Shown: in pieces, positions 4,230-15,275 of the stretch
How the letters are laid out: each line of letters starts with the position of its first letter
Position numbering within the stretch: position 1 is the first letter of the stretch
Origin: Chthoniobacterales bacterium
GTDB lineage: Bacteria; Verrucomicrobiota; Verrucomicrobiia; Chthoniobacterales; UBA10450
Assembly: GCA_035941955.1 (NCBI GenBank)
Contig: DASZDO010000096.1
Coordinates: 40,534 to 104,533 of the forward strand
Length of the DNA stretch: 64,000 nt
Direction: 5' to 3'
Program-made: the position numbers and the translations under genes
Notes under the pieces: generated by a model
Databases searched by the model: none
The model's input: only the letters and a program-made list of their open reading frames with translations
What the model was told of the DNA's origin: nothing

Positions 4230-4401
4230 GGGAGGGATTTTTTCTGTTTTGAGGTTATTTAGAACTGTTGACGCGATTATCTACGGCAATGCCGCTTTGA
4301 GGTTCTCCAAAATCCGATCTGATTCGGGGTTCTGGCGAGAACGTCTCCCATATCGAGAGTTGGAGTGATCCAACGGTGTTCCGAAAAAGATTTCCGCTGC
4401 C

Positions 4402-4599
4402 TTACTTCTTGGAGAATGGGACCTCCGGCAAAATGGGAGGCTCGATCAGGTCTTTGCACTCTTCGACCTCTTCGTTCGAATTCACCAGCTGGCCACCGGG
4501 ATTTACCAGGCGCGCGGTGACGAAAATGATGAGGTTTCGTTTGATGTGCTGCTCGGCGTTGGAGCGAAAGAGCTGCTCGAGAACGCACCATTCCAACAT
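4402..4599 (-). pseudogene. C-terminal remnant of a type II/IV secretin (PilQ-like)
   Basis: LEQLFRSNAEQHIKRNLIIFVTARLVNPGGQ matches the extreme C-terminal secretin consensus (LG.LFR...........L.IF.TP.I). Only about the last 55 residues are present, and the reading frame upstream loses all similarity. Confidence 0.5.
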
Positions 4600-4605
4600 A
4601 GCCCA

Positions 4606-4869
4606 TTACTGCGTAGCGGCGTCATCTGCTGGCGCAACTTCCTCAGTTGCAAAAAAGATGCAGCGTGTCTCCGTCGCTACTCTTCCAGCGGCGTCTGAGA
4701 AAGGACCGGTAATTTCAACCGCATACCCACCCAACATTCGCGCTGCAATAGTACCTTTCGTACCATGAGAAACGTCAGAATGGCGCGATCTCAAGATGAC
4801 GACTCGATTATGTTTCTCTAACGGCATATCACAAGCACTACAACCCTGCGTAATACCTTCTCTTTGCAC
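4606..4869 (-). CDS. Small protein, possibly DUF4926-like
   Basis: 87-aa ORF 53 nt downstream of the kinase-HD gene on the same strand. The pattern VVILRS....HGTKGTIAA...GGYAVEI....G resembles DUF4926. This is a weak assignment. Confidence 0.4.
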   Translation of the reverse strand: MQREGITQGCSACDMPLEKHNRVVILRSRHSDVSHGTKGTIAARMLGGYAVEITGPFSDAAGRVATETRCIFFATEEVAPADDAATQ

Positions 4870-4922
4870 TCACAAGTCTCGTTCCAGTTTTGATTCTCGA
4901 AATAAACCCTGGTCGAATCGAG

Positions 4923-7235
4923 TTACTTCGATCGTCCTACCTCCTCCAACAGTGGTCCCCAGTCGTCTGGCGTCATTGCCTTCAACGTACTGTAGTACTT
5001 CGGATGACAGAAAATGTACGCCTGTCTAACAGACTCCAAATAATCATTGGACGCGCCAAGCTTCTCCGGCACATCGTCAAAATCGTTCTTCCTAGAATCC
5101 CATATACGTAATTGACGATAACTATACGTCTCCTTACCTGGTTTGACCGGAGTCTTTTCCACTATAAGATCAAGCTCGGTTATGCCGGGACATCTCGTTT
5201 TCAGGGACTCGGCGATTCGTTTCGATGCGTCGACTGATCCTTGATAGTCTTTTTGATCTAACAAGCGTTGAAAAAAAGTTGACACCGCAAGTGGCTCATT
5301 TTTGCTCGAAAGACTAAACGTGTAGGCGGGTTTGAAAATATCCCGTCCAGCAAACGCAAACGGGGATATCAAGGGCAGTAGATCTGTATGCTTAGTAGCT
5401 TTCACCCGCTGAACGAGGGTCGAAATAAACACGTCATCGGGTAATTCTAGCAACTCAGAGATCACTGTCGGATTATCAACATCGCGCTTCACGTAGTGAT
5501 AGAAGAAATGCTTGAACATGCCTGTACATGCTCTCACCGTTTTGTGCCAATACACCTCCTGATACATGACATTACGACAAGCGAGAAGTGACGGTAGATA
5601 TGATCGCCCCTTCCGATTCAGGCATATGCGCGCGTGGGCTATGTCCAAATATAATGCGTCAATCAATCGATCCGGGTCCAGGGCCCGTCCGTAAGTAACA
5701 CCACAATGAATGCTGTCTCTTATCAGGTAATCTAGCTTGTCGACATCCAAAACCGAATCGATTATCGAATGCGCTACCAACTTCCTCGGATCCGTAAGGT
5801 TTTCCCCACAAATCACATCAGTGACCAAGTTAGGATCCAAATCCCATCGTTCGCTGATAATGGTCTTGATCTTTGAGCGTTCGAGAATCTGCTTGGCGCG
5901 CTGCTCATGACTTGGCAAATTCAAGTTCTGAGGCAGCGGTGCTAACTCTTCTATCCAGTGGGAATACGGATAATGGCCGATATCGTGTAACAGGGCCGAG
6001 AGAGTGACCAGCTTCAACATTTCCGGCACCGGGTCAGCAAAATCGTTAAAGATGGGGAGTCGTGTCAGGCTCTCGAGGTAGCGTAGTGCCAGATGATAAG
6101 TGCCCAATGAGTGTTCAAAACGCGTGTGGTAAGCTCCCGGAAACACAAAAAATGTTGGCCCGAGCTGCCGCGTCCCTCGCAAACGTTGAAAATCGCCTTC
6201 GTCTATTACGGCTTTGACTTCGGGAGTCAGCGAGACGGGCCCGGAAACCGGTAACTGGACCCTGCTGTCAAATACGAAGCGATTCCGTTGACGTGGGAGC
6301 AGAAAATCCCCAGTCCGAAGGCGTAACCCCCACCCCGATCTAGTGAAATACTGCTCTAACGTTCTTTTGAAAAACATGGCGTCTCTAGTAGGAAAGCGCC
6401 TATGCCCGAAAGAGGTTGCAGCCAACAGCGTGTCCTCTAACCCAGAATAACGGGTGGCGTCATAGTCATTCCGGAGAAGTGGCAAGATTTTCCGGAGAAC
6501 AAGCGCAAATTCGAAAATGTCGTTGGCCTCGTATTTCTCTTCTAATATTAAGGTAGGGTTGACGTTTTCAAATCGCCTTATTACGGGGTCTTGCCCAGGG
6601 GATGTGCCGTGGCGCGCGAACCCAAAATCCGCCAAGACAAAGTTCTGATCTTCATCCCGAAACAGAATATTGTCTGCCTTGATATCCTTGTGGGCCAGTT
6701 TTTCGCGATGACAATGAATTATCGCATCCGAGATATGCCGAACGACCTTTTCAAACAAATCGACGCGAAGCGGCTCAAACTGCGGATATATGGGAAGCTC
6801 TGTCTCAGGGTCATAGTCTCTTCGACAAGCCGGAAACATATCTGATAGACGCCGGGACAGATAGTCCATCACATAAAAATAAACGCCGCCGTCTTCGGAA
6901 TCTAATCCTTCGACTAACTGCCACCGCGCCTCAATGTCATTATAGGTCGCCCTTCCCGCCGTCTTAATTCCGACGATGTTCTTATGGTTTGTAGTCGCTA
7001 AAATCTTCACTTCGCGAACGAAATTTCCAATGCTTTCCGTTTCAGACATTGTGACATCTGGTCCCGGGAGGTACAGTTTTAAAGCGAAGGACTTGCCAAT
7101 GGGGTGCATTAACTGATACACGCCGCCCTGTTCACCCTTGCCCAAGCGCTTGACGATTCGGTATGGTCCGAACGCTAAAACTGCTGATTCAGGGTCCTGA
7201 CTAATAGCTTCATCAATGCGGTCAACGATTTTCAT
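4923..7235 (-). CDS. Fusion protein: Hanks-type Ser/Thr protein kinase (N-terminal) + SAMHD1/Dgt-type HD dNTP triphosphohydrolase-like domain (C-terminal)
   Basis: Kinase motifs: LGKGEQGGVY, FALK, HKDIKADNILF, LADFGFAR. HD motifs: YHTRFEHSLGTYHLA, LSALLHDIGHYPYSH, DVDKLDYLIRDSIHCGV. Single uninterrupted 770-aa ORF, visibly more AT-rich than its flanks. Confidence 0.85.
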   Translation of the reverse strand: MKIVDRIDEAISQDPESAVLAFGPYRIVKRLGKGEQGGVYQLMHPIGKSFALKLYLPGPDVTMSETESIGNFVREVKILATTNHKNIVGIKTAGRATYNDIEARWQLVEGLDSEDGGVYFYVMDYLSRRLSDMFPACRRDYDPETELPIYPQFEPLRVDLFEKVVRHISDAIIHCHREKLAHKDIKADNILFRDEDQNFVLADFGFARHGTSPGQDPVIRRFENVNPTLILEEKYEANDIFEFALVLRKILPLLRNDYDATRYSGLEDTLLAATSFGHRRFPTRDAMFFKRTLEQYFTRSGWGLRLRTGDFLLPRQRNRFVFDSRVQLPVSGPVSLTPEVKAVIDEGDFQRLRGTRQLGPTFFVFPGAYHTRFEHSLGTYHLALRYLESLTRLPIFNDFADPVPEMLKLVTLSALLHDIGHYPYSHWIEELAPLPQNLNLPSHEQRAKQILERSKIKTIISERWDLDPNLVTDVICGENLTDPRKLVAHSIIDSVLDVDKLDYLIRDSIHCGVTYGRALDPDRLIDALYLDIAHARICLNRKGRSYLPSLLACRNVMYQEVYWHKTVRACTGMFKHFFYHYVKRDVDNPTVISELLELPDDVFISTLVQRVKATKHTDLLPLISPFAFAGRDIFKPAYTFSLSSKNEPLAVSTFFQRLLDQKDYQGSVDASKRIAESLKTRCPGITELDLIVEKTPVKPGKETYSYRQLRIWDSRKNDFDDVPEKLGASNDYLESVRQAYIFCHPKYYSTLKAMTPDDWGPLLEEVGRSK

Positions 7236-7617
7236 TTGTCTTCAGCGAGTTAGGACATGTGCACGTAATTAATTGCCAATTGTGAAATGACTCGATCACC
7301 GAGCCTCAGGGCCGTGATGGGTTCTCGGCTTGCTTGCTACGGTGGCAGATCGATCATGATGCAACGCGGGTTGGTGGAAGGGGTCTCGAATTGGGGGTTG
7401 AGAAATGGGGTGATGGGAGATTAAACGGTCAGTTGAGCTTATAGGAAGCAGATTTTTCAATTTTCGTCGCTTGTCCAATATCTCATCCCGTATTGACTTC
7501 TTGCTTCATCCGCCGTGATGAACGGGTTACCGGCAGACGGGCAAGTGAAAGCGAAGCGAGGCCGAGTCGAGCCGCCCGTGCTCGACGAAAGACGAGTCCG
7601 ATATAGGAAACAAAGGA

Positions 7618-7652
7618 TTGGGACACCGGAACAGAAAGTTCGCGGTGCCCAA
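7618..7652 (-). terminator. Probable intrinsic terminator of the 7724..8473 gene
   Basis: On the minus strand, TTGGGCACCGCGAAC...GTTCCGGTGTCCCAA forms a ~10-bp stem with one bulge. It is followed by a T-rich run (TCCTTTGTTTCC), about 70 nt after the stop codon. Confidence 0.45.
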
Positions 7653-7723
7653 TCGTTTTGTTCCCCCAGGAACAAGTCTTCCAGATAGGGATTCTGAAGG
7701 CGAATTACAAGCGAAATCGCAAG

Positions 7724-8473
7724 TCAATAACGAAGACCGACGATGGTCTTATACTCTGCGCTACGTCGACCGAACTGGGCTGCGACGGCGGCTTTGGCTT
7801 GCTGGAACTGCGATTTCAAGCCGGTCTGTTCGCCGTCATAAAGCTCGGCGCGAGCGGCGACCGCGTTGCGGACTTCAACCAGCGCTGTGGTAACCGTCTT
7901 GTTGTGGTTTGCGAGAGCCGTCATGGAGGCGGTCAGCGCGGCCGGCTGGAGATCGGTGGCGGTGGGATTGTAGCCGGGCACTTGCGCCGCAGCCGCGGCC
8001 AGGTCGCGCCCGGCCTGCACGAGGGAGCCGTAACTGGCTTCCGATTGTGAAATCTCCTTTTTGTTCGCGTTGGGCCCGCCCGGTGGGGCGGTGACGGGCT
8101 TCTTCGGCGGCCGGTAGTTGCTGATTTTTTGGGTGAGCCGCTGGATCTGTTTGTAGCTGGGCGAGTGCTTGCCGCCCGCCATCGAGCCCGGGGTGTCGCG
8201 CACGCGAGCGGCGAGGGTGGCGAGGCCGGGCACGCCCTGCTTGACATCGCCGAAGTAGGCGAGCCGGCGGCTGGTGCGCGCGTCGGAGAGCGTCTGGCTC
8301 GAGCTCGCGACGGTGTTGTTGGCCGCCTCAACGGCGTCGAGGTGTTGCTTGAATTTGGTCGGAGTCAGGTTGGCATTATCCGGCGAGTAGCCGGCGATTT
8401 TATCAAGCGCGACCTGGAGGGCGCGCCCGTGTTCGAGTCGATTTCCGAAGGTACGTTCTGAGGTTTTAGGCAT
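7724..8473 (-). CDS. Hypothetical protein with internal duplication
   Basis: 249-aa ORF. Its two halves share (I/V)(A/P)GY(S/N)P...L.P... followed by Ala/Thr-rich helical sequence, with a PPKKPVTAPPGGP linker between them. No family recognised. Confidence 0.6.
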   Translation of the reverse strand: MPKTSERTFGNRLEHGRALQVALDKIAGYSPDNANLTPTKFKQHLDAVEAANNTVASSSQTLSDARTSRRLAYFGDVKQGVPGLATLAARVRDTPGSMAGGKHSPSYKQIQRLTQKISNYRPPKKPVTAPPGGPNANKKEISQSEASYGSLVQAGRDLAAAAAQVPGYNPTATDLQPAALTASMTALANHNKTVTTALVEVRNAVAARAELYDGEQTGLKSQFQQAKAAVAAQFGRRSAEYKTIVGLRY

Positions 8474-9024: not shown

Positions 9025-9264
9025 ATGAAATACTGGGAAATCATCGCGGATCGTCTGAGCAAATCAGGCTGGAGTTGGGGGTGCGTCGCAATTACCGCTG
9101 ACCAGGGACGCGCGATTTTTGTTGTTGATGCTCATCGCGACGATGGCCACCGCTACGTCGTGCGTTCGGATGACAAACTGACAGCGTTTCTTGAAATCGA
9201 AACGGTCGCGCGCACTACGCCACCGACGACGCTCAGCTTGGCGGTTCGGGCTCGCCGTCGATGA
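9025..9264 (+). CDS. Small conserved hypothetical protein
   Basis: 79-aa ORF MKYWEIIADRLSKSGWSWGCVAITADQGRAIFVVDAHRDDGHRYVVRSDDKLTAFLEIE. It resembles a widespread uncharacterised small-protein family (recollection only). Its 3' end overlaps 9233..9796 convergently. Confidence 0.45.
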   Translation: MKYWEIIADRLSKSGWSWGCVAITADQGRAIFVVDAHRDDGHRYVVRSDDKLTAFLEIETVARTTPPTTLSLAVRARRR

Positions 9265-9796
9265 CGACGAAAGCATTCGGAATCCTTTTGCCATTCTTTG
9301 TCGGGAAAGCGCTGCCAGCAAAGGCCTTCACATCGTTTATGATAGCTATGACCCGTTTGCGGCTCGGCACGAAGTCGATCAACTCGGCCGCGCTTGGCAG
9401 CGATGTACAGGGATTAATGCACCCGATGCTCGCGAGAAAACCCTGGCCGGGATGGATAAGGATTTCCGAACGCTGACCGGTTTCCTTGAGTTCAAGGCCG
9501 GGCTTGGGCTTAGCAGTTGCGCTCTCCGACTCCTTGTAACCGATCGTGACATACTTTTCGCCGTCCTGAGTAAATACGGGGTAACGCCCTTCCTCGACGC
9601 GGCGGTTGTTCCCAGCAGGCTTGTTGGCGCCAGGCCCGCGGGTTTCTGCAACCCTGCCTGAGAGCCCTGCACCCGTTTGCTTTACCCCGTCGTGGAAGAT
9701 CTGATACTCACCGACCGTTCGCCGTTTACCACTCGGGCGCCTTTGCTCGGACTTCCTGACGATGTGAAATTCCCAACCATCTTTTTCTATGGGCAT
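9233..9796 (-). CDS. YkuD/L,D-transpeptidase-fold protein (Tlde1/DUF2778-like?)
   Basis: ILIHPGQGFLASIGCINPC fits the H-x(n)-S-x-GC(I/V) catalytic signature of the YkuD fold. Size (187 aa) and the GRYPVF motif are reminiscent of Tlde1-type proteins. Tentative. Confidence 0.4.
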   Translation of the reverse strand: MPIEKDGWEFHIVRKSEQRRPSGKRRTVGEYQIFHDGVKQTGAGLSGRVAETRGPGANKPAGNNRRVEEGRYPVFTQDGEKYVTIGYKESESATAKPKPGLELKETGQRSEILIHPGQGFLASIGCINPCTSLPSAAELIDFVPSRKRVIAIINDVKAFAGSAFPTKNGKRIPNAFVVIDGEPEPPS

Positions 9797-9841: not shown

Positions 9842-10981
9842 TTATTGAGAAACAAAACTGAAGTCGTCAGCCACAAAAGACGTAACGGACCCTGCGTCCT
9901 CCTTCGAACTCAGGCAGAATTTCACCGTCTGACCTTTGAACGCAGTAAGGTCAAAAGTACGGAGCTGGAACCCCCGCTTCGCTTGCAGGTTTGAGAAAGT
10001 AGCCAGCGTTTTCACCGTATTGGATGGCTTTCGTACTTGCACCTTTAATGTATCTAGAGCGCCCGTGGACGTCTGCTCCTCAGAGGAGATATGAAGGAAG
10101 AACGACATTGACGCGGTTGTCGCCGACTCTGGAATCGTAACTTCCCGACAAAGCTTGTCCGTGTGCGGTTCGCCGAACCCGCCCAACCAGGCTTTAAAGG
10201 TTCCGGTTCGTGCAGGTTCACGAGAATCGTCTGTGATAACGCCATTGCTAGCATTCCAAGGGTCCTGACCCTCCTCGAATCCCGCGTTCACCAAGATACG
10301 TTCTACAGACCGAGCAGGACCGGGCGAAGGTCCCCCTGGGCTAGGGTTGAACTCGATCTTCAGGATAGGATGGAGTTCGAGGCCGTTCGTCGCACGGCCC
10401 GTCTGTCCATGTGGGCGATCGAAGAAGCCGACACCCGTGATTCGCACGGGGATTCCTTCTGCATCGGTCCACCCGCTCCCTGTCGCGCGCTCGGGGAACT
10501 TGGCCTCTAGAGCAGCCTTAGCGACAGTCATTTCGTTTGCGAAAACACTCGGTGACGAGACCGTGCTATTTCTACCCATGACGCAATCGGGATCGACGAT
10601 CTCGGCAATAAAGCTGTGCGTCGAACCAGGGTTGCCGGCACCAGAAGCGAACATCAACGTTTCATCTGTAACCACCAGATGGTAATCACTGTCGCCGGTC
10701 TTACCCGCCTCGAGCTTGAACTTGACCAAGAAGCCATCCACCACATAGACGCTTCTCTCCGTGGGGAGTCTCTCAAAGTCGTTACTTGGTATCGGGCCGA
10801 GTTTCTGAACCTGCGACAGATTATGAATTGAGATCGGGATCGGTTGAGTATTGATCTGGCTATCCGGATCGGCGCCAACCTTCACAGCCCAACGCTCGAC
10901 ACCACCACAAGGTTCCTGGGCTGCTACAGGAGCAGCCCAGATTAGCGCGAGTCCGAGGAGAAGCGTGCTTCGGCGCATCAT
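9842..10981 (-). CDS. Hypothetical secreted two-domain protein
   Basis: Signal peptide from the internal Met pair (MMRRSTLLLGLALIWAAPVAAQ). The N-terminal domain has CGGVERWAVKVGADPD and GVGFFDRPHGQTGRATNGLELHPIL. The C-terminal jelly-roll-like domain ends in VTSFVADDFSF. Confidence 0.6.
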   Translation of the reverse strand: MMRRSTLLLGLALIWAAPVAAQEPCGGVERWAVKVGADPDSQINTQPIPISIHNLSQVQKLGPIPSNDFERLPTERSVYVVDGFLVKFKLEAGKTGDSDYHLVVTDETLMFASGAGNPGSTHSFIAEIVDPDCVMGRNSTVSSPSVFANEMTVAKAALEAKFPERATGSGWTDAEGIPVRITGVGFFDRPHGQTGRATNGLELHPILKIEFNPSPGGPSPGPARSVERILVNAGFEEGQDPWNASNGVITDDSREPARTGTFKAWLGGFGEPHTDKLCREVTIPESATTASMSFFLHISSEEQTSTGALDTLKVQVRKPSNTVKTLATFSNLQAKRGFQLRTFDLTAFKGQTVKFCLSSKEDAGSVTSFVADDFSFVSQ

Positions 10982-11044
10982 TTGGTTAGGGGGGTCTTCT
11001 ACAGCGTTACGATTGGGAATCATGACTGGCCTGGATCGAGCCGG

Positions 11045-11809
11045 TCAACGAAAATGTATCCGGACGAGTGTAGGAGAACTCCTACACCGGCAAGGGCTGC
11101 TGTTCCAAATCGGGTCGCGCAGCGATGCCGCGGCGAATGGCTCGTTGAATTCCTTCGCGATCGCGGACGTGATGGAAAAGCCGCCGATCGGAACGCTGCG
11201 TGTGAAAATTTTCCCAGGCTCGACGAAAAGAAGATTGGTGGTGCGCGCACCGATGTCGACGAGAAGCGAGCATCCGGCCAGGTCCGGGTAGTTGAACCGG
11301 AACGCGTTGTAGAGCGCCATGGTCGCGAGATCGACAATCGATGTGCGCAAACCAGTTGCCTCGACGGCCTGGTTAATCTCATCGAGCAGGTCAGCCTTGA
11401 TCGCGACCAGGATCACCTGAATCTGCTCGTCAGCGCTGCTACTGACTTGCTGGTAATCCCAGGCCACCTCGTCGATCGGAAACGGAACGTTTTGCTGCGC
11501 TTCGAAGAAAACAATGCGTTCGATCTTTTCCGCGCCGATTGGCGGCAGGGTCACGAAGCGGGTGAAAACGGACTCCTCGGCTACCGTGTAGTTAACCTCT
11601 CCGCCCTTGATCTGGAGCTCCTCCAGCATCTCGCGCAAGGCGGCGACAATCTGCGTGCGTCGCGTTCCTTCTCTTGCCGGATCGATCAGAAATTCGCGCG
11701 AGCGGTAGCCACACAAAATCAACCCGCCTTGTGGTTGGGCGCGAAACTCCGCCAGCTCGATGCTCTGCGAGCCGAGATTGAGCGTGATGATGCGTGTCCG
11801 GGGGGACAT
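11045..11809 (-). pseudogene. pilM: Type IV pilus assembly ATPase-like protein PilM, 3'-truncated
   Basis: PilM-like over about 228 aa (IITLNLGSQSIELAEF..., ILVAIKADLLDEINQAVEATGL, LLVDIGARTTNLLF, SVPIGGFSITSAIAKEF). Similarity stops near nt 11126 and is followed by 26 unrelated residues and a stop. About 100 C-terminal residues of a normal PilM are missing, and no pilN/O/P follows. Confidence 0.7.
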
Positions 11810-11875
11810 TCACCCGCAAGAATTCCACAATTCGGCCGGGTTACGCCAGCGGAAAAAAAGGATCTCGTTTTGTGA

Positions 11876-11904
11876 TTGACCGGCTGACTTCAAATCGTCA
11901 GAAT
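11876..11904 (+). promoter_or_regulatory. Putative sigma70-type promoter of small secreted protein gene 1
   Basis: TTGACC-N17-CAGAAT. The same architecture is conserved before paralogues 2 and 3. Confidence 0.4.
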
Positions 11905-11983
11905 CGGGTTCGCCCCGGAAAACACCCCTACCCCCTTTTACCCTCCAGAAAACCCCACCAAAACCCCACAGAAAGAAACCCAA

Positions 11984-12367
11984 ATGAAGAGAAAATCCCC
12001 TCTGCTTACCTCCATCGGCGCCTTGGCGCTGTTTGTTTTAGTCGCATTTCCGACTCCGTCTGCCCGCGCAAGTCAAGGACAGTGTGGTGATGTAGTTATT
12101 ACTAACTACTACCCCGCGGGGTGCTTTATGGAGCTGACTGTCGAGCCGGAGGACTGCCTCATCTACTATACCACCACCCTCGACAATGCCAGCATCGTGG
12201 ATCCCTCACGCTCTGGGTATGATCCGGTTCCTCCAACCTTGACTTGTTACTACGGTCAGACATTTACAACTCCCTACGGCCACACCAGGAGAATCAAAGC
12301 GTTTGCCTATAAACCGGCTTGGACGCAATCAGTCCACATCACCTTCGGGCAGCAAACCTGCGACTAG
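11984..12367 (+). CDS. Small secreted Cys-containing protein, chitobiase/hexosaminidase C-terminal (CHB_HEX_C)-like single domain, paralogue 1 (divergent)
   Basis: Signal peptide MKRKSPLLTSIGALALFVLVAFPTPSARA. Mature ~100 aa with CGD..., IYYTTTLD, and C-terminal Cys. Homologous to the genes at 12706, 13871 and 14464. Confidence 0.7.
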   Translation: MKRKSPLLTSIGALALFVLVAFPTPSARASQGQCGDVVITNYYPAGCFMELTVEPEDCLIYYTTTLDNASIVDPSRSGYDPVPPTLTCYYGQTFTTPYGHTRRIKAFAYKPAWTQSVHITFGQQTCD

Positions 12368-12546
12368 CTTTGAGAAGCGACTGCAGCGTTCCCTCCGGAG
12401 TACCGGGTCGTATCCTGCCATTGAGTGACGAGCGGACCGCGCTCAGGCGAATCGTCTGCAAAATTCCGCGGGCCCGATGTTCGCCCGCCAGAATTCCACA
12501 ATTCTCCGGCGTTACGCCAGTGGAAAAATAAGGTCTCGTTTTGTGA

Positions 12547-12575
12547 TTGACCGGCTGACTTCAAATCGTCAGAAT
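12547..12575 (+). promoter_or_regulatory. Putative promoter of paralogue 2
   Basis: TTGACC-N17-CAGAAT, within a block nearly identical to 11870-11915. Confidence 0.4.
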
Positions 12576-12705
12576 CGGGTTCGTCCCGGAAAACACCCCT
12601 TCCCCCTTCAGACAAGCCCACCAAAAACCCCATAACCCCACATCCTACAAAACCCCTCAACCCACGAACAACCAAAAAAAATCCGAACCCTAGAAAGAAA
12701 CCCTC

Positions 12706-13095
12706 ATGAAAACAAAATCCTCCCTTTTCCGCTCAACCGGCGCCCTCCTGGCGCTGTTGGTGTTTATAGCGCTCCCCAGCTCGACCGCCCTGGCGTCTTG
12801 TGGACAGACTGATGATGTGGACATCTATTATGAATATGCATTACCGACCGGAATCCACGTCGAAATGGAGTGCAAGACCACCGGAGCAATCATCTACTAT
12901 ACATTAGACGGGTCAAATCCCACGCACGACGGCAGTGGTAACCCGACCGGAAACACCTATGTTTACGGCTGGCCCATTCCAATACCTTACGGTCAATGTT
13001 TCCATTTCAGGGCGCGTGCCTGGAAACCCGGAATTCCATGCTACTACGATTCGGTGAACATCAGTGACGAGACCATATGCAACCCGATCACTTGA
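12706..13095 (+). CDS. Small secreted Cys-containing CHB_HEX_C-like protein, paralogue 2
   Basis: Signal peptide with possible lipobox (TALASC). IIYYTLDGSNPTHDGS matches the (I/F)YYT.DGS.PT motif of the chitobiase/hexosaminidase C-terminal domain. Ends in ICNPIT. Confidence 0.75.
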   Translation: MKTKSSLFRSTGALLALLVFIALPSSTALASCGQTDDVDIYYEYALPTGIHVEMECKTTGAIIYYTLDGSNPTHDGSGNPTGNTYVYGWPIPIPYGQCFHFRARAWKPGIPCYYDSVNISDETICNPIT

Positions 13096-13156
13096 GAGAC
13101 GGCGGTAGCGTTTCCCACGGGATCGCCCTGTAACTCAAGCACTCCCAGGAAGCGGT

Positions 13157-13184
13157 CCGTGCCTGAAAAACCCTTCAGGCACGG
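13157..13184 (+). terminator. Stem-loop downstream of paralogue 2
   Basis: CCGTGCCTGAA-aaaccc-TTCAGGCACGG: an 11-bp perfect stem with no clear U-tract. Confidence 0.35.
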
Positions 13185-13266
13185 GCCGGCTGAGTTGTCT
13201 TGGAAATCCTGCTACTATCAGTCCGTAAACATCACCTCTGACTCGGTGCACAACCCTAATTTGTGA
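13185..13266 (+). pseudogene. 3' fragment of a further small-secreted-protein paralogue
   Basis: 13201-13266 reads WKSCYYQSVNITSDSVHNPNL*, compared with WKYCYYDSVNITDTTICNPPL* at the end of paralogue 4. There is no upstream coding part. Confidence 0.7.
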
Positions 13267-13766
13267 GAGAGAGCCGTAGCGTTCCGTTGGATTCGCTACG
13301 GCCTGAGAATTCCGATCATCGGACCCCGAAGCCTTTAAAGGAGGGGCTTCGAGGTTTTGATTTTGGAGGAGATAAGATGCGGCATCCGCATCTCCTGCGC
13401 CCGAATATTCTAACGTGCTAATGATCTCTTGAGAAGCCCCGTAAACCCGTTACCCCATTCGATCACTTCGGAATGGAAGCTGCTGCAAAATACGGTACCC
13501 CGCTAAATTTACATGGCTGGACCAATATCAGAGTTTTTTCGACTGTTTCAGGACTACTTTGGTCTGATTCCGCCGCTGATTTTGCTGTTGTGCGGTGCAG
13601 GTTTCTTATTGCGCGATGCGGGATTGGTCATTTGGCACCAACGGGGCCGGCTCTGCGAGCCGAAATTGAGCGTGATGATGCGTGTCCGAGGGGACATTCA
13701 ACCCGTGAGAATTCCACAATTCGGCCGGCGTTGCGCTAGCGGAAAAAAATGAGACGCCGTTTGTTA

Positions 13767-13795
13767 TTGACGGGCTGGCTTCAATTTGTCACAAT
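13767..13795 (+). promoter_or_regulatory. Putative promoter of paralogue 3
   Basis: TTGACG-N17-CACAAT in the duplicated upstream block. Confidence 0.4.
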
Positions 13796-13870
13796 CGGGC
13801 CCGCCCCGAAAAACATCCACTTCTACCCGACAGACAACCCCACCAAAAAACCAACAGAAAGAAAACCCAA

Positions 13871-14272
13871 ATGAAAACAAAATCCGCACTTCTTCCCTCA
13901 ATCGGCGCCGTGGCGCTGCTCGTGTTTGTTGCGTTCCCAAGCACTTCCGCCGTGGCGGCCCCAAGGTGCAGTGAGCCGGATGTTTATTATGAGTACGGTG
14001 GGCCTACTGGGTTACAAGTCGACATGGACAATACAGAGGACAATCTCTGTTTGCCCTGCAGCTCGTCCACGGTGGAACCAATCATCTACTTCACCTCAAC
14101 GGTCGATGTCCCCAACAACACCAATCCAACGCACAGCAGCCCTGTTTTCACCCAGCCGATTCCGGTTCCCTGGGGCCACACGGTCCATTACCGGGTGATC
14201 ACAGCCAAGGCATGCTGCAGCCATGTGGATTCGTACGTCGTCATTTTTGACGTAACCAACCCGGTCCCGTGA
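13871..14272 (+). CDS. Small secreted Cys-rich CHB_HEX_C-like protein, paralogue 3
   Basis: Signal peptide MKTKSALLPSIGAVALLVFVAFPSTSAVA. Contains DVYYEYGGPTGLQVDM, IIYFTSTVD..NTNPTHSS and extra cysteines. Confidence 0.7.
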   Translation: MKTKSALLPSIGAVALLVFVAFPSTSAVAAPRCSEPDVYYEYGGPTGLQVDMDNTEDNLCLPCSSSTVEPIIYFTSTVDVPNNTNPTHSSPVFTQPIPVPWGHTVHYRVITAKACCSHVDSYVVIFDVTNPVP

Positions 14273-14328
14273 GACGTCGATAAGACGTTTCCCTGGAAAG
14301 GTCTCCACGCAGAGACAATGGAATCTGA

Positions 14329-14353
14329 CGGAGGGGGGATCAGCCCCCCTCCG
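14329..14353 (+). terminator. GC-rich stem-loop downstream of paralogue 3
   Basis: CGGAGGGGGG-atcag-CCCCCCTCCG, a 10-bp stem. The same element follows paralogue 4. Confidence 0.4.
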
Positions 14354-14463
14354 CGACCGGTATGGGACGCGAGATCACCATCCATTTCACAAATCTGAGT
14401 CCTCCTCCCCTTGGAACGAAAAACCCTAAAACCACAGAAAGAAACCCTAGAAAGAAAACCCAA

Positions 14464-14841
14464 ATGAAAACAAAATCCTCTCTGTTCCGCTCAATCGGCG
14501 CCCTCCTGGCGCTGTTGTTTGTCACGCTCCCCAGCTCGACCGTCCTCGCGAATTGTGGGCAGTGTGCTGACGTGGACGTCTATTATGAATATGGAGGACC
14601 GACCGGAATCCAGGTCGAAATGGAGTGCGCATATCCCGCCGGAGCAATCATCTTCTATACAACCAACGGCTCGAATCCGACGCACACCGGCAGCACACCG
14701 GGCGCAAACACCATGATCTATATGGGGCCCATTTACGTGCCTTCCAATTCATGTGTGCGTTTCAAGGCGCGGGCCTGGAAGTATTGCTACTACGATTCGG
14801 TGAACATCACTGATACGACCATATGCAACCCCCCCCTATGA
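14464..14841 (+). CDS. Small secreted Cys-containing CHB_HEX_C-like protein, paralogue 4
   Basis: Start placed at MKTKSSLFRSIGALLALLFVTLPSSTVLA; the track ORF starts upstream at 14362. Contains DVDVYYEYGGPTGIQVEMEC, IIFYTTNGSNPTHTGS and ICNPPL. Confidence 0.75.
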   Translation: MKTKSSLFRSIGALLALLFVTLPSSTVLANCGQCADVDVYYEYGGPTGIQVEMECAYPAGAIIFYTTNGSNPTHTGSTPGANTMIYMGPIYVPSNSCVRFKARAWKYCYYDSVNITDTTICNPPL

Positions 14842-14896
14842 GACGCCAATAAGGCGTTTTCCCGAGAGGTCTCCACGCGGAGACAGCGAAATCTGA

Positions 14897-14925
14897 CGGA
14901 GGGGGGCCATCAACCCCCCCCTCCG
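14897..14925 (+). terminator. GC-rich stem-loop downstream of paralogue 4
   Basis: CGGAGGGGGG...CCCCCCTCCG, a paralogous copy of 14329-14353. Confidence 0.4.
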
Positions 14926-15275
14926 CGACCGCAACGACACGGCGGCAGAGCGCCGTGGCTACAGCGCGTTACCTGCAAAATTCCGCCGGCTCTATGCTCC
15001 ACGAACCGGGATTGAGCGTGGTTGATGCGCGTCCGGTAGGACATTTGCCCACCAGAATTCCATAATTTGGCGTCAGATACCGGTCTAAAGGCAGCGAAAA
15101 CCCAGAAAATCAAAGACAACTGCCCGCAATTATACGATATTCAGGAACGGAAGCGTGAAAGAAGCAGCAACGCACTCACAGTTCGGGAAGAAATCTCCTC
15201 TTTTGTCCGAATAACGCCGCCCGGGTGGGCGTCGGAACACGTTCTAATTTGAGACATGAACTCTTTGGCTGATTT

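Follow-up and report, generated by a model that had tools for sequence, protein, structure and literature searches.

A Hanks-type protein kinase fused to a SAMHD1-like HD core in Chthoniobacterales: a candidate phospho-regulated dNTP triphosphohydrolase in foreign-looking DNA

Nucleotide depletion by deoxynucleoside triphosphate (dNTP) triphosphohydrolases (dNTPases) of the HD class is an antiviral strategy of humans, through SAMHD1, and of bacteria, through dGTPases. The function of SAMHD1 is controlled by Ser/Thr phosphorylation at T592. To our knowledge, the on-off control of bacterial nucleotide-depleting HD dNTPases is largely unknown, and a gene from a Chthoniobacterales bacterium raises the question of whether such control can be built into the enzyme itself. 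The gene lies in a 64,000-nucleotide stretch of contig DASZDO010000096.1 (hereafter, the window) and encodes a predicted intact Hanks-type Ser/Thr kinase joined to a SAMHD1-like HD core that can be aligned with the human enzyme, and thus a putative regulatory module within one polypeptide. In this study, we examine the two halves of the fusion, the distribution and genomic surroundings of its relatives, and the roles that these features argue for.

The fusion gene (4923-7235, minus strand) is a single uninterrupted open reading frame (ORF) of 770 codons plus stop with an ATG start, and its product is a 100% match to NCBI HEV2842928.1, a protein from a Chthoniobacterales metagenome-assembled genome annotated as 'HD domain-containing protein'. 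An original prediction, made from the nucleotide sequence alone, had quoted a series of kinase and HD motifs, and all of them are present in the translation: LGKGEQGGVY, FALK, HKDIKADNILF, LADFGFAR, YHTRFEHSLGTYHLA, LSALLHDIGHYPYSH and DVDKLDYLIRDSIHCGV. The proposed domain order was recovered with Pfam, which places Pkinase at residues 25-219 (E 1.6e-19), HD at 372-504 (1.4e-10) and HD_assoc_2 at 520-614 (3.5e-5), and the proposed union of a Hanks-type kinase with a SAMHD1/EF1143-type HD core was borne out by PDB searches and by Foldseek as well. Residue conservation was counted in a family alignment of 44 homologs, across which both catalytic sets proved invariant. Relative to the closest homolog, the two halves are 65% and 69% identical in amino acid sequence, with 217/152/506 differences at the three codon positions, and both are under similar purifying selection.

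The HD half (residues 324-770; 4926-6266, minus strand) consists of a SAMHD1/EF1143/Aq_1910-type triphosphohydrolase core and a C-terminal lobe, as judged from phmmer and profile searches of the PDB, Foldseek and conservation. The matches in the PDB were 2hek (Aq_1910; 1e-33 with phmmer and 4e-52 with a 44-sequence profile), 2q14 (BT4208; 2e-27 and 3e-37), 2o6i (EF1143; 1.5e-22 and 8e-43), 9mr6 (fungal SAMHD1; 2e-21 and 4e-37) and human SAMHD1 (2e-16 and 1e-36), the SAMHD1 alignment covering profile positions 328-635. A better fit of the HD region to other HD families had been named as the outcome that would speak against a dNTPase; HD-GYP, SpoT/RelA and CCA-type HD structures gave no match at E<=0.01 with phmmer against the PDB, and only SAMHD1-type structures did. 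An AlphaFold2 (AF2) model based on the family alignment had a mean predicted local distance difference test score (pLDDT) of 90.6 and a predicted template modelling score (pTM) of 0.83, the latter of which suggests a defined inter-domain geometry. The top PDB neighbours of this model in Foldseek were SAMHD1, 2hek, EF1143, fungal SAMHD1 and BT4208 (E ~1e-15), with target-normalised template modelling (TM) scores of 0.60-0.83 over 440-510 aligned columns, so that the C-terminal lobe is part of the structural match. All sequence and structure features tested assign the HD half to the SAMHD1/EF1143/Aq_1910 (COG1078) group.

The residues that serve catalysis and nucleotide recognition in SAMHD1 have retained counterparts. 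The HD metal tetrad (H375, H417-D418 and D499), which aligns with H167, H206-D207 and D311 of SAMHD1, is invariant (44/44), as is each of Q357, L358, R372, H421, H426, H443, Y503 and Y562, the equivalents of SAMHD1 Q149, L150, R164, H210, H215, H233, Y315 and Y374. The equivalent of K312, K500, is Lys in 40 and Arg in 4 sequences; D507 (D319) is kept in 43/44 and R554 (R366) in 38/44. These conserved equivalents include readers of the deoxyribose and of the triphosphate, and we infer that the HD core would hydrolyse dNTPs to deoxynucleoside and triphosphate. The allosteric-site-1 (AS1) triad of SAMHD1, D137/Q142/R145, corresponds to D345 (39/44), Q350 (44/44) and R353 (39/44), and because these residues are kept the core is probably an oligomer and probably nucleotide-activated. 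At allosteric site 2 (AS2), H376/K377 are matched by the invariant H564/K565, and the equivalent of N119 is not conserved (Q/R327). The C-terminal lobe also carries the motif E-x-T-P-x-K at residues 693-698 (nt ~5142-5159), with T695 in 36/44, P696 in 42/44 and K/R698 in 31/44 sequences, which recalls the cyclin-dependent kinase (CDK) site T592-P-Q-K of SAMHD1.

The kinase domain occupies residues ~25-295 (6351-7163, minus strand), as delimited by Pfam, conservation among the homologs, AF2 and a PDB profile whose matches were CDPK1, PknB, MARK2 and PKR. Its motifs are the G-loop (32-39), K53, E75, H182-K-D184-I-K186-x-x-N189, D203-F-G205 and D239 of helix aF, and its activation loop spans residues 205-226 and contains S212. 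K53, E75, H182, D184, N189, D203, G205 and D239 are invariant, K186 is present in 43/44 sequences, and G32/G34/G37 are mostly conserved; Lys two positions past the catalytic Asp is a signature of Ser/Thr kinases. Position 212 is Ser or Thr in 32/44 sequences. The Pfam Pkinase match covers profile positions 1-158 of 263, and a clear APE motif is absent from the compact C-lobe, which AF2 builds from helices aE and aF plus two more; low pLDDT in the whole model is confined to 214-217, within the activation loop. From its conserved residues, the kinase half is active-looking and does not resemble a pseudokinase. A conserved linker, defined by family alignments (residues ~296-323; 6267-6350, minus strand), runs from the kinase C-lobe to the N-terminal hairpin of the HD half.

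The full kinase-HD architecture was found in more than 100 clusters at 90% identity, with full-length identities of 36-67%. With the kinase and linker (residues 1-330) as query, an exhaustive phmmer search of 1.84 billion representatives returned whole-length matches in only about 25-30 clusters at 50% identity, and these were either 730-865-aa fusions or contig-end fragments running into the HD motif; the next matches were generic kinases with partial coverage. The kinase clade of the fusion therefore occurs only in the kinase-HD fusion, and a modular kinase with swappable effectors was ruled out on this ground. By source annotations, the members come from Chthoniobacterales (Verrucomicrobiota), Bacteroidota/Chitinophagaceae, Treponema (Spirochaetota), Desulfobacteraceae (Desulfobacterota) and Marinimicrobia, and, among archaea, from Promethearchaeota (Lokiarchaeota), Heimdallarchaeaceae and one uncultured archaeon. 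The family is thus small, rare and phylogenetically scattered over bacterial phyla and Asgard archaea. A metagenome scan with a kinase-only alignment added at least five fusion loci, all on short contigs, and a GTDB scan gave at least one full fusion among the matches listed. A viral origin was considered and rejected, as IMG/VR yielded HD-only relatives at 25-32% identity and no fusion.

Kinase-less relatives, 46-49% identical to the HD half, keep the linker and sometimes remnants of the kinase C-lobe. Several (P0101, P0111, P0113, P0114, P0117 and P0119) start inside or just ahead of the linker, and C-lobe-like remnants are still visible in P0119. One such relative (L010, 9998-11407) lies in a housekeeping context with IMPDH and SAHH genes; it is not accompanied by a neighbouring kinase gene and still has the linker, which argues for loss of the kinase and against a split pair of kinase and HD genes. 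The kinase-less relatives therefore look like kinase-loss derivatives.

The fusion gene is compositionally foreign to the window, as had been predicted from its visible AT-richness. Its GC content of 0.485 (0.53 at third codon positions, GC3) is the lowest of 35 long window ORFs (z about -3.4), which have a mean GC of 0.589 (sd 0.031) and a mean GC3 of 0.691 (sd 0.073). The AT-rich patch is confined to about 4.6-7.7 kb and ends at an adjoining ORF (7724-8473) with a GC of 0.64. It includes an 87-aa ORF, orf87 (4606-4869, minus strand), found as described 53 nt downstream of the fusion on the same strand, and an upstream intergenic region of 488 bp (7236-7723, minus strand; GC 0.48-0.51), presumed to hold the promoter or regulatory sequences. 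This upstream region had no Rfam match, promoter-like sites and terminator matches occurred only at chance level, and comparison with the regions upstream of the homologs gave no conservation. Low GC extends to the relatives: in 12 of 13 neighbourhoods, a set that includes that of the window, GC is lower in the fusion gene than in its flanks (for example, L190, 0.295 against 0.549; L007, 0.414 against 0.568; L003, 0.448 against 0.584), and low GC is accordingly a family-wide signature of foreign or accessory DNA and not a peculiarity of the window.

The surroundings of the fusion are variable. Over the 13 neighbourhoods there was no conserved partner gene, and an all-against-all search for a conserved small-ORF partner or upstream element gave only the pair formed by the window and its closest homolog locus. 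The contexts are non-syntenic, and the conserved housekeeping setting that the original prediction had named as a contrary outcome was not observed. Two loci are dense defence islands. The fusion in L189 is located 118 bp downstream of the hsdS-hsdR genes of a type I restriction-modification (R-M) system, with PDC-M36 and a NACHT/STAND gene next to it; in L188, the neighbours are PDC-S60, a CARF-like gene, a type II methyltransferase, PDC-S01 and an MNT/HEPN pair. Two further loci resemble mobile genetic elements (MGEs), with a tyrosine integrase on either side of the fusion in L186 and a Bro-N gene plus a methylase fragment in L005. In L003, a 514-aa gene (10321-11865) with weak similarity to Metallophos and no PADLOC match starts 17 bp past the fusion stop on the same strand and is possibly co-transcribed.

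The closest homolog locus, L001/L002, carries a fusion 67% identical to that of the window and also has flanking genes in common with it: the ORF at 7724-8473 (orf249) has an 81%-nt homolog in L001, and, on the other side, a PD40-type gene (48-1034) is matched at 72% nt identity. Between these flanks the gene content differs, and the fusion is thus placed in a variable region between conserved flanks. The 249-aa, Ala-rich product of orf249 (minus strand) belongs to the conserved flank outside the AT-rich unit and had no family match in Pfam, PADLOC or NCBIfam. Its L001 homolog (~85% aa identity) lies about 6 kb upstream of the fusion there, and the match (L001 1323-2070) is split over two frames (tblastn 1323-1580 and 1582-2070), which suggests a frameshift or sequencing error in L001.

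The fusion had been placed in DNA that replaced the middle of a pilus operon, and this view is plausible but stands only in part. A pilM truncated at its C-terminus (11045-11809, minus strand; PilM_2 E 2.5e-22, covering 4-230 of 340 profile positions) is indeed present and marks the far edge of a ~6.4-kb non-pilus segment. The supposed secretin remnant at the near edge (4382-4570, minus strand), which has a weak match to the C-terminal part of Pfam Secretin (E 0.0023), is a ~175-bp repeat that marks the downstream edge of the unit formed by the fusion and orf87. It is present once in the window and in five copies between successive unrelated genes in L001 (4417-4591, 6288-6468, 7425-7493, 10370-10558 and 12392-12430), one of which begins 57 bp past the fusion stop. 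To varying degrees the copies keep one frame and the same stop (...IFVTARLVNPGGQLVNS...EPPILPEVPF.KK and stop; in the window, ...IFVTARLVNPGGQLVNS...EPPILPEVPFSKK and stop), one being frameshifted and two truncated, and the common frame and stop identify the repeats as decaying copies of a secretin-type 3' end. As an alternative to a pilus-operon remnant, the stretch in the window may be a repeat that serves as boundary or recombination site in a cassette-like variable region. An integron cassette was rejected, as the boundary repeat is a decaying secretin-type 3' coding end without an attC-like hairpin (DNA fold z -0.68).

Other features of the segment are recorded here as side observations. 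Between pilM and the secretin-like fragment (4382-4570) there is no pilN, pilO, pilP or pilQ, the genes that normally come after pilM, and the truncated pilM is followed directly by an unrelated 393-aa secreted-protein ORF (9842-11023). Within the non-pilus segment, weak similarity of a 187-aa ORF (9233-9796, minus strand) to DUF5675 (E 3.6e-4, below cutoff) and to phrog_1501, a family of unknown function (E 3.9e-7), is a hint of phage-related sequence, and the end of this ORF is overlapped by a 79-aa ORF on the plus strand (9025-9264). Positions 11740-15000 hold tandem paralogous small secreted proteins (11984-12367, 12706-13095, 13871-14272 and another from near 14464), at least one with CHB_HEX_C_1/Fn3_assoc domains, and the regions upstream of them are repeats of 91-94% identity. 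One of these repeats, found at 11762-11815 and again at 13650-13703, contains the first ~16 codons of pilM, which points to local duplications beside the truncated gene.

How does the fusion compare with known systems? It resembles human SAMHD1 in its directly alignable core, with common metal ligands, catalytic His, dNTP-binding residues and AS1 triad (Foldseek TM ~0.7), and in having an N-terminal accessory domain ahead of that core. It differs from SAMHD1 in that the accessory domain is a protein kinase and not SAM, so that the kinase is in cis whereas that of SAMHD1 is a separate CDK; in its prokaryotic hosts; and in the lack of conservation at AS2 N119. In sequence and structure, the HD half comes closest to Aq_1910 (2hek; TM 0.83), EF1143 (2o6i/3irh/4lrl) and BT4208 (2q14), of which EF1143 is cited in PMC13519002 (from Vorontsov et al. 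2011, 2014) as a dGTP-activated tetrameric dNTPase. Standalone COG1078-type proteins have neither kinase nor linker and, among the GTDB matches listed, are common chromosomal genes in Planctomycetota, Gemmatimonadota and Chlorobi, in contrast to the rare, AT-rich and non-syntenic fusion clade.

The anti-phage dGTPases of the Dgt family (those of Tal et al., the Vdg octamer and CloA of Clover) belong to the same predicted class, in which HD dNTP hydrolysis starves phage replication, but to a different HD subfamily. PADLOC gave no dGTPase match on the HD half, and the NCBIfam models NF003701 ('anti-phage deoxyguanosine triphosphatase') and TIGR01353 (dGTP_triPase) scored 15 bits against a cutoff of 383 and 18.8 against 152, respectively. 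The dGTPases of Tal et al. are not directly alignable to SAMHD1 (bioRxiv 10.1101/2021.04.26.441389), whereas the HD half of the fusion is. Defensive dGTPases sit inside type I R-M operons (same source), and the placement of the fusion in L189 with type I R-M genes is like that of some of them. Regulation in this group is by nucleotides: Vdg responds to dAMP, and nucleotide regulation is described for CloA/CloB in PMC12265719. The domain order of the fusion has a parallel in a defensive dCTP deaminase in which defence requires the N-terminal kinase-like domain as well as the C-terminal one (Tal et al., bioRxiv 10.1101/2021.04.26.441389): in each, a 'kinase' precedes a nucleotide-depleting enzyme within a single polypeptide. 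The deaminase N-terminus is described there as a predicted kinase domain with a nucleotide-binding motif, the kinase of the fusion is of the Hanks type, and the effectors, a deaminase and an HD hydrolase, differ.

Hanks-type kinases have defensive relatives of their own. Stk2 is a Hanks-kinase-based defence protein, and the PADLOC models PD-T4-6, MADS MAD6 and Mokosh MkoA, which attest to the use of eukaryote-like kinases in phage defence, match part of the kinase core at E ~1e-16 to 1e-17. These matches are no better than that of Pfam Pkinase and reflect generic kinase-core similarity; the MAD6 equivalog of NCBIfam scored 50.9 bits against a cutoff of 460, the window holds no partner genes of MADS, PD-T4-6 or Mokosh, and, unlike the fusion, MADS, PD-T4-6, Mokosh and Stk2 are not known to carry an HD dNTPase. 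Neither PADLOC (2.0) nor NCBIfam has a model covering the whole protein, a full-text literature search found no description of a kinase-HD dNTPase, and the dGTPase fusions of a 2026 survey are to SAM, NLR, TIR, CARD, death and SIR2 domains, with none to a protein kinase (PMC13519002). The impression that the fusion is not a recognised system thus held up: nucleotide-depleting HD effectors are known, and the fused, putatively regulatory kinase is previously unreported.

At roughly even confidence, we read the fusion as a horizontally mobile, single-polypeptide conflict protein, directed against phages or MGEs, in which the fused kinase controls a SAMHD1-like dNTPase. The reading draws on the architecture, the invariant catalytic sets, the similar purifying selection on both halves, the fold and inter-domain model, the confinement of the kinase clade to the fusion, the rarity and patchy spread, the foreign composition, the variable context and the occasional defence islands, and it has precedents in the defensive dGTPases and dCTP deaminase of Tal et al. 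Phosphorylation by the fused kinase would switch the activity of the HD half, with autophosphorylation of activation-loop Ser212 and/or sites in the HD half as candidates, and dNTP depletion would in this way be tied to a signal, for example infection; how and in which direction the kinase acts, like the role in defence, we infer. A stricter form, in which the protein represents a new class of single-protein immune effector whose fusion-only Hanks kinase senses infection and phosphorylates and activates the SAMHD1-type dNTPase in cis, is offered tentatively, as a possibility somewhat below even. Several observations weigh against a conflict role. The sample of contexts is small and lacks a formal background for comparison; clear defence islands occur at only 2 of the 13 neighbourhoods, and in 9 of the 13, that of the window among them, no defence or MGE genes could be recognised. 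PADLOC matches none of the neighbours of the fusion in the window, where there is also no integrase, nearby tRNA, flanking direct or inverted repeat or clear att repeat around the gene, the only tRNA lying at 61.6 kb. The existence of kinase-less derivatives means that the HD half can evidently work without the kinase, and no activity has been assigned to 2hek and 2q14, the structures nearest to it. Three of the 13 loci pair the fusion with genes of thymidylate or dCTP metabolism, which fits a metabolic role equally well: it lies between DHFR and ThyA in L007 (7264-11090), adjoins a 203-aa dCTP deaminase in L186 (6351-6962) and has a dCMP deaminase and ThyX nearby in L188 (10759-11259 and 17515-18186). 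A functional connection with dNTP metabolism, or else nucleotide modules of a phage-like kind, could explain these recurring pyrimidine-dNTP neighbours. The same neighbours support a regulated housekeeping or stress enzyme of the dNTP pool, whose kinase would adjust the breakdown of dNTPs to growth phase, dormancy, DNA damage or the cell cycle, similar to the tuning of SAMHD1 by CDK phosphorylation in cycling cells. Most contexts of the fusion are metabolic or hypothetical, the standalone relatives are common chromosomal genes, and the L010 derivative sits among IMPDH and SAHH, all of which agree with such an enzyme; the rarity, scatter, lack of synteny and AT-richness of the fusion, its variable region between conserved flanks and the two defence islands do not, and we regard this explanation as rather unlikely.

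Another alternative concerns the substrate of the HD half. That this half acts instead on NTPs, a signalling nucleotide or nucleic acid, making the protein a signalling or nuclease-type effector, has in its favour the lack of an assigned activity for its best structural matches, the binding of single-stranded RNA and DNA by SAMHD1 (as PDB titles state) and the breadth of the HD superfamily. Yet only SAMHD1/EF1143-type structures match at E<=0.01, and there is full or almost full conservation of the equivalents of SAMHD1 L150 and Y374, with roles in 2'-OH exclusion and sugar stacking, and of the triphosphate-binding residues; we rate another substrate as improbable. A different alternative makes orf87 the second gene of a module in this lineage, its product an all-beta inhibitor, immunity factor, antitoxin-like partner or trigger adaptor of the fusion. 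Conservation of orf87 starts at an internal ATG (4827), the probable true start, which gives 73 aa, and differences of 19/16/41 by codon position indicate purifying selection and hence a real gene. In L001/L002 a homolog (66% aa identity) is the immediate neighbour of the fusion, but lies upstream and divergent where orf87 of the window is downstream and co-directional; adjacency has thus been kept despite rearrangement, and in L001 the pair sits between two copies of the repeat. Against a module, there is no orf87-like or other recurrent small ORF beside the fusion at the 11 other loci, no homolog among 5.8 billion proteins, and no match in Pfam, PADLOC, PHROG or NCBIfam; a single-sequence AF2 model, predicted all-beta, is too poor for use (pLDDT 61), and the linkage may reflect a common cassette. 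We consider the module quite unlikely, and orf87 may be a lineage-specific partner or a mere cassette neighbour.

If the kinase gates the dNTPase, the fusion would provide a compact, genetically tractable model for phospho-regulated dNTP depletion and a new defence architecture, one absent from PADLOC 2.0, NCBIfam and the 2026 survey of dGTPase fusions (PMC13519002), and its Asgard archaeal members would bear on the evolutionary origin of SAMHD1 regulation. Should immune activation by phosphorylation in cis be true, the family would give the phospho-control of SAMHD1 a precedent in bacteria and Asgard archaea, and under an immune role its members would be the closest prokaryotic relatives of SAMHD1 yet tied to antiviral defence. 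Even if the role is not immune, a kinase-controlled dNTPase would represent a new mode of control of the prokaryotic dNTP pool.

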